Of a DNA stretch of 25,340 bases, positions 3 through 4,751 are shown piece by piece. The notes below the pieces were generated by a model. That model ran no database searches. It saw nothing but the letters and a program-made list of their open reading frames with translations, and was not told the origin of the DNA. The DNA lies in the NCBI GenBank assembly GCA_016763165.1, contig JAESUJ010000096.1, positions 1-25,340 of the forward strand, written 5' to 3'. The first letter of the stretch is position 1. Every line of letters starts with the position of its first letter. The position numbers were made by a program, and so were the translations under genes. This DNA comes from Candidatus Babeliales bacterium (GTDB taxonomy: Bacteria > Babelota > Babeliae > Babelales > CAZZPM01).

Positions 3-560
3 ATCATAGGTGGGAATTTCCCATTTGATGACGGAGCAGGCGGATATGAAGTCGAACCAATCAGAGGGGTCAATCCTAAGCTATCAGCGTTACTTAGCTA
101 CCTTGACGGAGCAGATGTTGGAACCAAATACATTATCTGGGCAAGATTCAGACCAGAAATCGCAGCGATCAGCGAATCTTTACGCTCGGCGTTCGGGGAG
201 GGAGCAGTTGTCGAATTTCATGGAGGAATTGACGACATTGGGCGTAGTGATGCTTCAAACGCCTTCCAACACGATAGTACCGTTCGATTTATGGTCAGCA
301 ACCAAACAGTTGGAGGTAAAGGACAGGAATGGTCAGCCGCCGATGCAATGGTCTACTTCTCCAATACATTCAGCTATGAGGATAGAAAACAAAGTGAGGA
401 GCGCGCGATTCACACCGATAAGCGCACTTCCATTTTCTATTTGGACTTGGTAGCCAACCATCCTGCAGATAAGATGATAACTACTGCATTGAAGAAGAAG
501 TTAACGATGGCACAGTGGGTGGAAGACCAACTCGAAGAAGGCAAGAGGATAGAATTATGA
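3..560 (+). CDS. SNF2-like (SF2) helicase, C-terminal RecA-like domain (5'-partial; frame is open from the window start)
   Basis: Frame 3 is stop-free from position 3 and reads ...NPKLSALL...KYIIWARF...VEFHGG...RFMVSNQTVGGKGQEWSAADAMVYFSNTFSYEDRKQSEERAIH, matching the helicase-C motif IV-VI layout of phage SNF2 proteins. The track ORF 291..560 is only its distal part. Confidence 0.85.
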   Translation: MIGGNFPFDDGAGGYEVEPIRGVNPKLSALLSYLDGADVGTKYIIWARFRPEIAAISESLRSAFGEGAVVEFHGGIDDIGRSDASNAFQHDSTVRFMVSNQTVGGKGQEWSAADAMVYFSNTFSYEDRKQSEERAIHTDKRTSIFYLDLVANHPADKMITTALKKKLTMAQWVEDQLEEGKRIEL

Positions 561-940: not shown

Positions 941-970
941 TTGACACGATATGTCGTCCCATGTTATAAT
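941..970 (+). promoter_or_regulatory. sigma70 consensus promoter for the replication/Z-synthesis operon
   Basis: TTGACA (941-946), 18-nt spacer, TG extended -10 and TATAAT (965-970), in an intergenic gap. Confidence 0.85.
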
Positions 971-975
971 AGGTA

Positions 976-1272
976 TCGGTCGCGGTGACGTGGCCTAAAG
1001 AATCTCCCACTTTAGTCAATCGTATGAAATAGGGATGAGAAGGAAAACTAAAGGTTCCAACTCCATCATGGATATGTATTCGCAGTGAAGAAACCTACTG
1101 CACAAGGCCACCATGAGGTATGCAACTCGATTGATTACCGTAAGTAATCAGTGGAAACGCCTAAATAATCCACTACTTAAATCAAAAGCCGACTTGCAGA
1201 CGTAATCTGCACTTTATTCGCGGTAAAAGCCCGAATCCACTGTCACAAACCCAACAGTCCTAGGAGGACGCC
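976..1272 (+). ncRNA. Candidate structured 5' leader / cis-regulatory RNA
   Basis: About 300 nt without an ORF between the promoter and the next gene, tiled with hairpins: 995-1015, 1034-1067, 1082-1101, 1132-1150, 1195-1211, 1216-1236, 1239-1258, 1257-1269. Long-range pairings 990-996/1105-1111 and 1014-1022/1128-1136. Confidence 0.5.
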
Positions 1273-1692
1273 ATGAATACAGAATTTTCAACTAAGAGTA
1301 CCTTTAAAGAGTTAGCACTTGAAATGTACGTGCTATCCAAAGCCATAGCCGAATTAGGCTCTGACAAGTCTGCGTTACAGAAACGATATGATCTATTACG
1401 TCATAAAATCGTGCCTGATAAGCTTGACGAAGAAGAAATGCAGAACATCACCATCAAAGGCATCGGTCGTCTTGGCGCTACTCCTCAACTTCGAGTTAGT
1501 GTCCTAGCAGGCAATCGTGAAAAGCTCCAATCATGGATGTGTGAAAACGGATTCGAAGACCTAGTACAAGGCACTATCAACTCGTCTACCCTGAAAGCGT
1601 GGGTAAAAGAGCAGATGGAAGCAGGCAATGAAATACCTGATGACCTAATCAAAATTGACCCGTTCATGCTAGCAACATTAACTAAAACCTAA
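1273..1692 (+). CDS. Conserved phage replication-module protein, 139 aa (N-terminal coiled coil), function unknown
   Basis: Strong AGGAGG RBS. Coiled-coil N-terminus and a W...GF.DLV...IN..TLKAWVKE pattern typical of proteins preceding SSB/Pol A genes in such phages. Confidence 0.75.
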   Translation: MNTEFSTKSTFKELALEMYVLSKAIAELGSDKSALQKRYDLLRHKIVPDKLDEEEMQNITIKGIGRLGATPQLRVSVLAGNREKLQSWMCENGFEDLVQGTINSSTLKAWVKEQMEAGNEIPDDLIKIDPFMLATLTKT

Positions 1693-1790: not shown

Positions 1791-2552
1791 ATGACTAAAT
1801 CAACAGAGTTAGCAGTAAACGAGAACCTACCTGCGTTTTTAAAGAAAGATTCAGCACGTGGCTCAGAAGAAGTATCATCAAATGACGTATCGATTCCGCG
1901 CATGTCAATAATCCAAGATTTAAGCCCACAGCGTAAAAAGAATGATGATAAATACATCACAGGTGCAGAAGAGGGCATGTCCTTTAACACCGCCACGTTG
2001 GAGCTATTTCAAAAAGCAATCAACATCATTCCAATTTACTTCCGCAAAGAGTGGATAATTTGGAAAGATATCAATAAAGGCGGCGGTTTCTTCGGTTCAT
2101 TCGATAGCGAACCGTTAGCGGTAGCAGGAATGCGTGACCTTGAAGGCAATGCCAATGACTACGAAATCGTAGACACGCATCAGCATTTCGTGCTTTTATT
2201 GAAAGAGGGTTCAACCAACGATAATCCAATCTTGGAAGAAGTGGTTATCAGTTGCTCCAAGTCCCAAATGAAGCCGAGCCGACAGTTGAACACCCTAGCT
2301 AAAATGGCAGGCGGTGACCGATTCAGCCGTCGTTACAAGCTTGAAGTCATAACCGATGAAAATCGTGCAGGTCAGAAGTTCTTCAATTGGAAGTTCACTG
2401 GTCAAGGTTTCGTTAGTGAAGCAATGTTCATCGCGGCAGAAAAATCGTACGAAGCAATCGCCTCTGGCCAACGTACAGTTCGCCAAGATTCTGAATCGTC
2501 AACGGGTCAGACAGTAGATAGTACTGCTGAAACAATCGAAGACGAATTCTAA
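1791..2552 (+). CDS. Putative phage ssDNA-binding/annealing protein, 253 aa
   Basis: Beta-rich core (IPRMSIIQDLSPQ..., IPIYFRKEWIIW), a disordered acidic tail ending ETIEDEF like T7 gp2.5-type SSBs, and position upstream of the polymerase. Confidence 0.55.
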   Translation: MTKSTELAVNENLPAFLKKDSARGSEEVSSNDVSIPRMSIIQDLSPQRKKNDDKYITGAEEGMSFNTATLELFQKAINIIPIYFRKEWIIWKDINKGGGFFGSFDSEPLAVAGMRDLEGNANDYEIVDTHQHFVLLLKEGSTNDNPILEEVVISCSKSQMKPSRQLNTLAKMAGGDRFSRRYKLEVITDENRAGQKFFNWKFTGQGFVSEAMFIAAEKSYEAIASGQRTVRQDSESSTGQTVDSTAETIEDEF

Positions 2553-2611
2553 GTAAAGAGTTTCATGGTCGCCCAAGGATGGGCACTCCCTCTTCCCAAT
2601 AAGGTACAATT

Positions 2612-2878
2612 ATGAGTGACTTCGATAATACTAATAGCGGAGCGTTACACAAGAACGACCGCAAGTCAACCCCAACCCAACCAGATTATAAAGGTGATGC
2701 AGCCCCCGTTTGCGTCCACTGTGGAGCGAAGCAAGATTTTTGGCTCTCAGCATGGATTAAAACAGCACGTAGTGGCAAAAAATGGATGTCAATAGCGTTC
2801 CAAGCGAAAGACGACCCACGCGAGAAACAAGCTCAGAAGCCATCGGACATTGACTACGACGATGACATTCCATTTTAA
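2612..2878 (+). CDS. Small SSB-like protein with a bacterial SSB C-terminal tip (DDDIPF)
   Basis: N(S)GAL.KN..K...PDYKG...W.SAW.K...G.K.MSIA pattern of small phage OB-like proteins; ends DYDDDIPF. Confidence 0.7.
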   Translation: MSDFDNTNSGALHKNDRKSTPTQPDYKGDAAPVCVHCGAKQDFWLSAWIKTARSGKKWMSIAFQAKDDPREKQAQKPSDIDYDDDIPF

Positions 2879-2903
2879 ATAACATAGAATCTGAGGGGGT
2901 TCA

Positions 2904-4751
2904 ATGGATATTTTCAAAAGTCCTGTTATAGGGCTTGATACTGAGACTACTGGTCTGCGCTACCCACGGCACAAGGCCTTCTCTCTTTCAATAGCGACAC
3001 TTGACGCAGCCCAAGGCTTCGACTTCCGCTCGCAACCACAAGACATCGAATGGCTACAGGCTCAGTTCAATGAGTATACTGGCCGTATCGTTTGTCATAA
3101 CGCATCATTCGATTTCCGCATGTGTGATTCTGCGGGTCTTGTTCTACCTATCAACCAAATGGACTGCACTAGTATACGTGCATGCCAAATCAACGAACAT
3201 GAGGGGACAATCTTCCCTTGGACTAAGCGCGCAGGATCATTCAGACTAGACGACCTTGGTTCCAAATACTTAGACGAACGCAAGTCTCAAGAATTCTATG
3301 AAGAAGCAAGGGCGTGGTTCGGCAAGAAATTGACCGTTAATCAAATCATGGCTCGGATAAGCGAATTACCGCGTGAGATAGTTGAGCCGTATCAAAACCA
3401 AGATGCGCTCCTTGCCCTGCGTTTATGGCATTGGCAAGAAAAAGAAATAGAAAGGCAAGGAATTGAGGATATAATCGCATTTGAGAGAAAGGTCATGCCT
3501 ACTCTCATAAGGGCTGAAATGCGAGGCGTAGATGTCGATATAGAAGAAGCGGAACGCGCCCAACCTAAATTAACGGCAGAAATAGACGTACTGCAATCCC
3601 AACTAAACACAATAGCAGATGGTGAATTCAATGTTAACAGCACACCGCAGGTTAGAAAATTATTTAACCCAACCGAAACAGATAATGGATGGATTGCTTG
3701 TGATGGCACTCCTCTTGAGAGCACGAAAACAGGGAATGCCTCGTTTGGAGGCGACGCACTTAGACACATTAGTCATCCTGCGGCTCCGCTCATTGTGGGA
3801 ATACGGTCGCTTATCAAAACAAGGGATACTTTCCTTGGTTCCCACATACTTAAACATGAGTACAACGGAAAGGTGTATCCTACTATCAACCAATGCAAAG
3901 GCGAGGACGGAGGCACTGGCACTGGCAGGTTATCCGTTACAACTCCTGCGCTCCAACAAATACCTGCCCGAAACAAAAAAGTTGCTGAAATCGTTAAACC
4001 TTGCTTTCTTCCTCCGTTAGGAATGAAGTGGTTGGAAACCGATTTAGCGTCATTTGAAGTACGGGTATTTGCTCATTTGGTATCGGCCTACAACGATTCA
4101 CTGGTACATGCGTACGAAGCGAAGCCAGACATGGACTTCCACCAATGGGTAGCTGATTTAATGGGCGTACCAAGGAATGCATCGTACGGCGGTGAAATAA
4201 ACGCCAAGCAATTGAACCTAGGTATGATATTCAACCAAGGGAACGGCACGATAGCACAAGATTTACAATTACCGTGGGAATGGCAAGAATTCACATCTGG
4301 CGGCGACCTCATTCGCTATAGAAAAGCGGGCAAAGAGGCGATGGAAGTAATAAACAACTACCATCAAAGGGTACGGGGCGTAAAGACGTTAGCCGAAAGA
4401 GCTAAAATGAAAGCAGAAGCAGTGGGCTTTATTAAGACTTTCACTGGCCGCAGATTACGGTTTCCTAAGGGATATAAATCATATAAGGCATCGGGGCTAC
4501 TGATACAAGCCACGTCCGCCGACATAAACAAACAAAATTGGATGCTGTGTGAAGAGGCATTAGGCAATGACGGCCACTTAATGCTAAACACACATGATTC
4601 CTATTCTATGGCCGTCCCAGAAGATTGGCGTCCAGTATTCAATAGAGTAAAAGAAGCCATAGAGCAACCCCGACTGAAAGTCCCCTTGATATTGGACTTG
4701 GATGGGGCAGGGCGCAACTGGTGGTCAGCTAAAAACGGAGAAGAAAAATAA
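2904..4751 (+). CDS. dpoZ: Family A DNA polymerase with 3'-5' exonuclease, DpoZ type (Z-preferring)
   Basis: Exo I DTETTG, Exo II HNASFD, Exo III YQNQD; motif A DLASFEVR; motif B KQLNLGMIF (L439/F443 where Pol I has F/Y); ASGLLIQ (G531 for N); motif C HDS (S566 for E). Sits in the same operon as purZ. Confidence 0.9.
   Translation: MDIFKSPVIGLDTETTGLRYPRHKAFSLSIATLDAAQGFDFRSQPQDIEWLQAQFNEYTGRIVCHNASFDFRMCDSAGLVLPINQMDCTSIRACQINEHEGTIFPWTKRAGSFRLDDLGSKYLDERKSQEFYEEARAWFGKKLTVNQIMARISELPREIVEPYQNQDALLALRLWHWQEKEIERQGIEDIIAFERKVMPTLIRAEMRGVDVDIEEAERAQPKLTAEIDVLQSQLNTIADGEFNVNSTPQVRKLFNPTETDNGWIACDGTPLESTKTGNASFGGDALRHISHPAAPLIVGIRSLIKTRDTFLGSHILKHEYNGKVYPTINQCKGEDGGTGTGRLSVTTPALQQIPARNKKVAEIVKPCFLPPLGMKWLETDLASFEVRVFAHLVSAYNDSLVHAYEAKPDMDFHQWVADLMGVPRNASYGGEINAKQLNLGMIFNQGNGTIAQDLQLPWEWQEFTSGGDLIRYRKAGKEAMEVINNYHQRVRGVKTLAERAKMKAEAVGFIKTFTGRRLRFPKGYKSYKASGLLIQATSADINKQNWMLCEEALGNDGHLMLNTHDSYSMAVPEDWRPVFNRVKEAIEQPRLKVPLILDLDGAGRNWWSAKNGEEK

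Follow-up and report, generated by a model that had tools for sequence, protein, structure and literature searches.

The leader of the replication and Z-base operon in this phage carries a short hairpin, here called hairpin 1, that belongs to a covarying RNA module found in otherwise unrelated phage contigs. The initial annotation had proposed the whole leader as a candidate cis-regulatory RNA. This was supported in part, as hairpin 1 is conserved and covaries but the ~300-nt leader as a whole is not a conserved RNA. Taken by itself, the leader is an ordinary, variable 5' UTR of a phage. By the window we mean the whole stretch of DNA analyzed (25,340 nt), an entire 25.3-kb contig of a Z-genome phage that was binned in a 742-kb, 75%-complete MAG; that MAG need not be the host. 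Coordinates are those of the window, and all leader features lie on its + strand. Upstream of the leader are the end of a SNF2-type helicase gene and an endonuclease VII-like gene. The first gene of the operon encodes a DUF7307 / Pam3 gp33-like protein (1273..1692, + strand) and is followed by genes for a gp34-like protein, a small single-strand-binding protein (SSB) of 88 aa, a family A DNA polymerase, PrimPol, PurZ, and an HD hydrolase. No tRNA genes were found in the 25-kb window.

Conserved core, insert and predicted folds of the leader

Consistent with the earlier proposal that the leader heads the replication and Z-base operon, it is a real 5' leader behind a consensus sigma-70 promoter. 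The promoter (941..970, + strand) reads TTGACA-18 nt-TATAAT with an extended -10 TG (12/12 matches). It was retained at an equal position in all relatives compared, and its sequence in L010 is almost the same as in the window. From this perfect promoter we infer a transcription start near 977, so that the leader would extend ~296 nt to the ATG at 1273, and host RNA polymerase would transcribe the operon leader from here. Just 5' of the -35 box, we also observed a conserved hairpin (884-935) with the loop GGCCAC, which can pair with a downstream GUGGC. Its stems are compensated in relatives (CGAGC/GCUCG, CCAAGC/GCUUGG), and more distant relatives have another sequence with the same layout of hairpin plus loop pairing. 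This element may fold at the 3' end of the preceding transcript, or it may serve in regulation.

We compared the leader with loci whose encoded proteins are 69-84% identical (eight) or 45% identical (one) to the gp33-like protein; their gene order was the same. In these relatives, the promoter is retained, the transcript likewise opens with a short hairpin, and the final ~26 nt of the leader are kept, including a hairpin that masks the ribosome-binding site (RBS). The two ends are shared, but the leader is 296 nt long in the window compared with 44-101 nt in relatives (44 nt in L008, L009, and L010, 45 nt in L011, 65 nt in L006, 100 nt in L003, and 101 nt in L002). The 5' hairpin of the window (978..995) is GGUCGCG-GUGA-CGUGGCC, with a GNRA loop and a predicted energy of -11.9 kcal/mol, and relatives have a hairpin at the matching place, such as UGGUC-GAGA-GGCCA in L008. 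The 3' core common to relatives (1247..1272) consists of AACCCAACAG and then the RBS-masking hairpin GUCCU-AGG-AGGAC (1257-1269; pair probability ~0.9), which overlaps the Shine-Dalgarno sequence AGGAGG at 1262-1267. This hairpin shows compensatory changes and was retained in all relatives. As judged from sequence comparison, the truly conserved regulatory feature of the leader is this predicted Shine-Dalgarno-masking hairpin.

Between the two ends, the window contains ~250 nt (996..1246) that were absent from L003-L011 and L002. Since the leaders of relatives are short and share both ends, this stretch is an insertion specific to the window phage. The view of the ~300-nt leader as a conserved structured unit was contradicted by relatives at 70-84% protein identity, which have 44-100-nt leaders without the insert. 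Given that close relatives lack it, the insert is not essential to the operon. We propose that the ancestral core was small, comprising the 5' GNRA hairpin and the RBS-masking hairpin, and that in the window lineage ~250 nt would have been inserted between these two core hairpins and partly duplicated. Two pairs of internal repeats were found, one joining 993..1019 with 1159-1185 (21/27 identical; 3 of 2000 shuffles score as high) and the other 1076..1113 with 1214-1256 (2 of 2000 shuffles). The two pairs are collinear, which suggests that the insert grew by a local duplication of about 140-166 nt. No coding remnants were detected in the leader or insert, Tandem Repeats Finder reported nothing on the leader, and a small upstream ORF ending in the hairpins was rejected as inconsistent across contexts. 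For the study of Z genomes, this is a negative but useful result, as it places the long leader outside the conserved Z-base machinery.

All of the sequence elements described in the initial annotation were found where it had placed them. GUGGCCU (990-996) is complementary to AGGCCAC (1105-1111), and AGUCAAUCG (1014-1022) is complementary to CGAUUGAUU (1128-1136). The minimum free energy (MFE) of the leader was -74.7 kcal/mol (z = -1.9), with 7 of 200 shuffles folding equally well, so whole-leader folding was only modestly better than in shuffles and is unremarkable. The leader contained five hairpins with stems of at least 6 bp compared with a shuffle mean of 1.9, and 201 of 5000 shuffles reached five. 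Two such hairpins sharing an identical loop did not occur in any of 5000 dinucleotide shuffles. The twin CGUAA hairpins noted earlier are thus present and not due to chance, and these two, hairpin 1 and hairpin 2, are the only CGTAA-loop hairpins with stems of at least 6 bp in the 25-kb window. Against shuffled controls, it was this shared-loop pair that stood out and not the folding energy.

Pair probabilities were 0.74 for hairpin 1, 0.98 for hairpin 2, 0.36 for the helix 990-996/1105-1111, and ~0 for the helix that crosses it. When the 5' hairpin (978-995), whose formation is suggested by the comparison with relatives, was enforced, the best fold lay 2.7 kcal/mol above the MFE, used the crossing helix (1013-1022/1128-1137), and also paired CUCC (1004-1007) with the Shine-Dalgarno sequence. 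Alternative leader folds are plausible by this modeling. The mutually exclusive helices proposed earlier are therefore tenable in energy but have no comparative support; the other copies of the ~300-nt leader are all identical and so provide no covariation data for long-range helices.

Several further hairpins were predicted within the insert. GCAGUG-AAGAAACC-UACUGC (1082..1101) occurs in both the MFE and constrained folds. Directly after hairpin 1, AGUGGA pairs with UCCACU around an A-rich loop (AA...AUAA; 1150..1174). Hairpin 2 (1190..1211) comprises C1190, GAC-U, and a stem at 1195-1200/1206-1211 closing the loop CGUAA. Its hairpin sequence UGCAGA-CGUAA-UCUGCA (1195-1211) is followed by CUUUAUU, and with a 6-bp stem containing three G-C pairs it is weakly terminator-like. 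Terminator-like sites were not commoner than in shuffles (4 versus 2.8 +/- 1.7). The last of these hairpins, AUUCG.GGU-AAAA-GCC.CGAAU (1216..1236), has no U-tract behind it.

Sequence and covariation of the hairpin module

Hairpin 1 is a canonical copy of the module (1128..1150). It consists of C1128, GAU at 1129-1131, and the hairpin UGAUUAC-CGUAA-GUAAUCA at 1132-1150, with the stem at 1132-1138/1144-1150 and the loop at 1139-1143. We found exact matches of 19-25 nt to this region in otherwise unrelated phage contigs. The exact 19-mer was present in 13 IMG/VR contigs and a 21-mer in 36 contigs from metagenomes, none of which is related to the window beyond this match. A degenerate pattern of the module matched 107 viral loci. 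The consensus is N-GAU-[UGRUURC]-C-N'-UAA-[GUAAYCA]. We note that module instances were gathered by sequence patterns, so the stem diversity seen is limited.

Covariation was assessed in 56 distinct instances, excluding the window. The stem pair that the pattern left free was A-U in 29 instances, G-C in 27, and mismatched in none. The base 4 nt 5' of the stem covaried with the second base of the loop (GC in 31, CG in 22, UG in one, and other combinations in two). This flank column lies outside the search pattern, so the flank-loop covariation was not imposed by the search. Overall, 97.8% of cells were paired in the module alignment compared with 13-51% in slid controls. The covariation that the initial annotation proposed to look for was therefore found in the hairpin 1 family, both in the stem and in the flank-loop pair. 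Both states of the tertiary pair are seen among primase leaders and again among SSB leaders, which implies several independent switches. We interpret the module as having the topology of a miniature H-type pseudoknot, in which the 3-nt linker GAU would cross the 7-bp stem. The predicted fold is a 7-bp hairpin with the loop C-S-UAA, and the base 4 nt upstream would pair with loop base 2 across the GAU linker.

A covariance model of the 56 instances, built without the window (R1), gave a single significant match on the 25-kb window, at 1119-1157 (34.1 bits, E = 7.5e-8; E-values for this model are rough). Window positions 1129-1150 have the 7-bp stem UGRUURC/GUAAYCA, the loop C-S-UAA, and the GAU 5' flank, and C1128 and G1140 fit the predicted tertiary pair. 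Hairpin 2 (1190-1211) was not matched by R1. It has in common with the module the loop, a C-GAY-U flank, and the hairpin form, and differs in the stem; from these shared features it looks like a diverged module copy. The insert contains one canonical copy and one divergent, module-like copy of a small RNA fold that is common among uncultured phages. Exact patterns of hairpin 2 and of the junction between hairpin 1 and its downstream flank had no matches in viral contigs. Likewise, no homologs were found of the rest of the leader outside hairpin 1, and a second model derived from SSB-type leaders (R2) aligned with the hairpin alone in the window.

The module appears to be uncatalogued. As the initial annotation had anticipated, the leader matched no Rfam family, permissive thresholds included. 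At such thresholds, a search of the leader, the T7-like loci, an intergenic region of Erwinia phage Pastis, and 16 further module loci returned true GOLLD RNAs only. We found no paper containing the motif sequences. Among GenBank phages, there was no match to the window region or to module-bearing leaders, and the hairpin occurred in Pastis only. A 17-mer scan of prokaryote genomes gave 81 matches, about the number expected by chance; none had a CGATT flank, and most look coding. E. coli genomes showed no similarity to the module and no sign of rRNA or tRNA mimicry. We also considered whether hairpin 2 mimics the anticodon arm of tRNA-Tyr and rejected this, as the tRNA-Tyr stem in the bin differs (ACGGA/UCCGU).

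Relation of the module to GOLLD RNA

Three true GOLLD RNAs also contain the module hairpin, which falls at positions 305-323 of the Rfam model for this family (RF02032), and the GOLLD RNAs of L114 and L129 have 21 nt identical to window 1129-1149. As far as the literature shows, this link between the module and GOLLD is new. GOLLD and the hairpin family of the window share a GA(U/G)U 5' flank, a stem starting with GAUU or GGUU, and a loop ending in UAA, and both are phage-borne. To our knowledge, the function of GOLLD has been unknown since 2009. By our own stem count, unchecked against the published figure, we take the GOLLD hairpin at 305-323 to be stem P23 of the cryo-EM structure. By a mapping of our own that is likewise unchecked, P23, J24/26, and L27 presumably correspond to the module hairpin, the AAAG linker, and the last loop. 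A preprint on the GOLLD cryo-EM structure describes a tertiary hub formed by stem P23, linker J24/26, and loop L27 (doi 10.1101/2024.12.08.627333).

The window leader is not itself a GOLLD RNA. The RF02032 model found no match in the leader at E <= 10, and in the whole assembly it gave nothing but noise (7.5 bits, on a different contig); scores of true GOLLDs are 160-275 bits, and the gathering score of the model is 150 bits. There was no significant similarity outside the hairpin and no adjacent tRNA. GOLLD is also a free RNA of ~800 nt, whereas the window has ~300 nt within an mRNA leader. Downstream of hairpin 1, the leader contains, in GOLLD order, GUGGA.A, an A-rich-loop hairpin ending AUAA-UC, AAAAG, and GUAAUCU. 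The hairpin at 1150-1174 resembles the A-rich-loop hairpin near the GOLLD 3' end by regular expression, but the unbiased alignment was not significant. Local alignments to three GOLLD 3' ends had scores that 407, 1028, and 64 of 2000 shuffles reached, and unbiased alignment of the upstream half of the leader with GOLLD showed nothing. A regular expression of GOLLD consensus letters, shaped after seeing the window, matched only one true GOLLD and the window leader in 3.4 Mb.

These collinear motifs raise a reading in which the strong promoter would give rise to a small RNA of its own, related in miniature to the 3' end of GOLLD and ended or processed at hairpin 2, with read-through yielding the operon mRNA. 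The motif order found by regular expression, the terminator-like form of hairpin 2 with CUUUAUU, and the parts of the tertiary hub (P23, J24/26, and L27, mapped without a check against the figure; doi 10.1101/2024.12.08.627333) are consistent with it. We nonetheless consider it distinctly unlikely, given that RF02032 failed to match, that the alignments to GOLLD 3' ends were not significant, that the regular expression was fitted to the window, that no tRNAs are nearby, and that the terminator is weak and of a kind no commoner than in shuffles.

Genes downstream of the module and its putative role

Where the module occurs, it is always in sense orientation before a gene. It usually ends 17-36 nt before the start codon and is followed by an A/U-rich linker, often with an RBS-complementary pyrimidine tract on the 5' side of the module. 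The genes that follow encode T7-like primase-helicases, PF00436-type SSBs (behind at least three types of leader), a small SSB that is a homolog of the one in the window (E = 1e-14), a pyrophosphatase, and several small proteins without assigned function. In T7-like primase leaders, the module adjoins a covarying H-type pseudoknot. Relatives of the primase leaders at 76-77% identity have a compensated A-U to G-C variant with the loop CCUAA, and an 85%-identical primase relative (L155) has no module.

The module-bearing leaders have further structure of their own. Primase-helicase leaders of uncultured T7-like marine phages (L017-L029, L159, and L160; for example L017:5360-5520, minus strand) contain ~125 nt of structured RNA without an Rfam match. 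It consists of an H-type pseudoknot with 5-bp and 7-bp stems, both showing compensatory changes, then a CUCCCUCCUCCUC tract complementary to the RBS, then the hairpin module, and 97.3% of cells were paired compared with 23-41% in slid controls. The identical hairpin with its CGAU flank is found in both these leaders and the window, but neither the H-type pseudoknot nor the RBS-complementary pyrimidine tract is present in the window. Leaders of the SSB type (L122, L126, L130, L237, L238, L262, L284, and others; alignment A8) look, from their aligned sequences, like a larger leader family. They have a box CCUCGUUAG-(U)UAAAGACAAA ~10 nt upstream of the module and a pyrimidine tract complementary to their own RBS, with a perfect 9-nt match in L262. 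In the N4-like Erwinia phage Pastis (OQ818705.1, 62974-63511 = L030:2744-3281), the module lies in an intergenic region of 540 nt, without annotation, where the early genes begin; it occurs there as a variant with a G-U pair among many stable hairpins, and the region has no Rfam match.

The recurrence of the module in phage SSB and primase leaders is best fitted by the protein operator that the initial annotation had listed among its possibilities, although binding is putative. We propose that the module is a compact recognition or structural element and that a trans-acting factor, or the fold itself, would tune the translation or stability of replication-gene mRNA. The most plausible factor would be a single-strand-binding protein or a host component. 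We judge the chances of such a functional operator, acting at the RNA level, to be about even. In phage T4, the SSB gp32 binds a translational operator of gene 32 in which a pseudoknot precedes an unstructured, A/U-rich stretch that covers the RBS. The module in other phages resembles this arrangement in having a small pseudoknot and a G-poor, A/U-rich linker with UAAA-type repeats at an SSB or primase RBS. There is no sequence relation to the window, however, where the module is far from the RBS with structured RNA behind it and SSB binding is hypothetical. The boxB pentaloop hairpins to which N protein binds in lambdoid nut sites offer a second parallel, as they also combine a short stem and a 5-nt loop early in the leader, and the window has two copies. 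The loop sequence differs, though, and no boxA-like element or N-like protein was identified. The module was also found in T7-like and N4-like phages, which do not use N antitermination.

A more general proposal is that the ~25-nt GAU-hairpin mini-pseudoknot represents a new class of regulatory RNA widespread among phages, which would bind a protein or ligand and, as an operator, coordinate translation of replication genes (SSB, primase-helicase, and the Z operon), and that GOLLD cages would then display or compete for the same partner. We advance this tentatively and think it rather less likely than the operator role alone. If it were true, GOLLD would gain a first functional handle. If the module is an operator, a small, sequence-defined RNA element would be common to T7-like, N4-like, and Z-genome podovirus-like phages and to GOLLD, and a common partner, if real, would connect a giant RNA that forms cages with the post-transcriptional control of replication genes in phages.

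The near-invariance of ~21 nt and the fixed distance to genes, as in phage promoters, could instead reflect a signal at the DNA level, either a promoter for a T7-type phage polymerase or a single-strand origin hairpin. The Syn5 promoter reads ATTGGGCACCCGTAA, then G at +1 (PMC3950665). The module reads ...ACCGTAA and then G, so the two share CCGTAA-G and are of similar length. The T7-type RNA polymerase domain (PF00940) was, however, absent from the genome of the window (G000), from the complete relative G155, and from the complete module-bearing genome G004, so that no cognate polymerase is encoded. Moreover, there is one copy per contig, the covariation of stem and flank-loop pair fits a folded single strand and not a duplex promoter, the element is a covarying hairpin inside GOLLD RNA, and in both the window and L025 it lies within a transcript from a host promoter. 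We therefore rejected the phage-polymerase promoter, and the DNA-level reading, to which we give very little credence, is already largely refuted. The earlier suggestion of a single-stranded DNA origin is not favored either, considering the constant sense orientation before a gene and the RNA-type tertiary covariation.

A nucleotide-sensing switch had also been suggested, and we considered a nucleotide- or purine-sensing riboswitch that would couple the Z-base pathway to metabolite levels. The position of the leader at the head of a PurZ/DatZ/polymerase operon, the near-isoenergetic alternative folds (including one with CUCC 1004-1007 paired to the Shine-Dalgarno sequence), and the compact pseudoknot of the module, similar to small aptamers, would all suit such a switch. 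However, neither the insert nor the module is present in the relative G155 (the record of L002), although its genome, complete at 36.9 kb and bounded by direct terminal repeats, encodes PurZ (59% identity); it encodes no T7-type RNA polymerase. G004, conversely, has the module and no PurZ. The module is therefore not tied to Z-base genes. It also precedes SSB and primase genes of ordinary phages, and no known riboswitch matches the leader. Together, these observations make nucleotide or Z sensing very improbable.

In the window, the module is far from its usual place. Hairpin 1 ends 122 nt before the ATG at 1273 and hairpin 2 ends 61 nt before it, compared with the usual 17-36 nt, and hairpin 1 is followed by structured RNA and not by an A/U-rich linker. 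Given this spacing and the missing linker, the present role of the window module is uncertain. It may have been recruited to this atypical position or left over there, and it may act via alternative long-range pairings or be a relic. The latter corresponds to a neutral origin, in which illegitimate recombination with the leader or noncoding RNA of another phage, followed by local duplication, would have left hairpin 1 without a role. Relatives that function with 44-101-nt leaders, the duplication within the insert, the misplacement of the module relative to the RBS, and the high variability of leaders in both phage groups (such as L155, without the module) all point this way. On the other hand, hairpin 1 is a perfect copy that includes the flank-loop pair, and at a distance of 63 nt there is another module-like hairpin with matching loop and flank (a shared-loop pair arose in none of 5000 shuffles). 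Weighing these points, we regard neutral debris as a possible but less probable account than an RNA operator.

Conservation among copies of the phage bears on this question as well. Five other metagenomic copies of the window phage, from different studies, were 100% identical over 850-1700. This block is identical while neighboring patches vary, which would argue against debris, but the variation is mosaic and thus uninformative. The near-identical copies L013-L016 differ from the window only in dense patches (17-71 differences each), located at window 130-292 and 2432-3002, and the block at 293-2431, including the leader, is identical. This distribution suggests recombination rather than uniform drift. 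The sequence of the window phage was present in DNA metagenomes from seawater, marine, and subsurface sources, with no RNA run among those listed. Within the same operon, the small SSB gene of the window is preceded by a short leader (2553-2611) that has no module but contains a CUCCCUCUUCC tract resembling the RBS-complementary tracts of module-bearing leaders.
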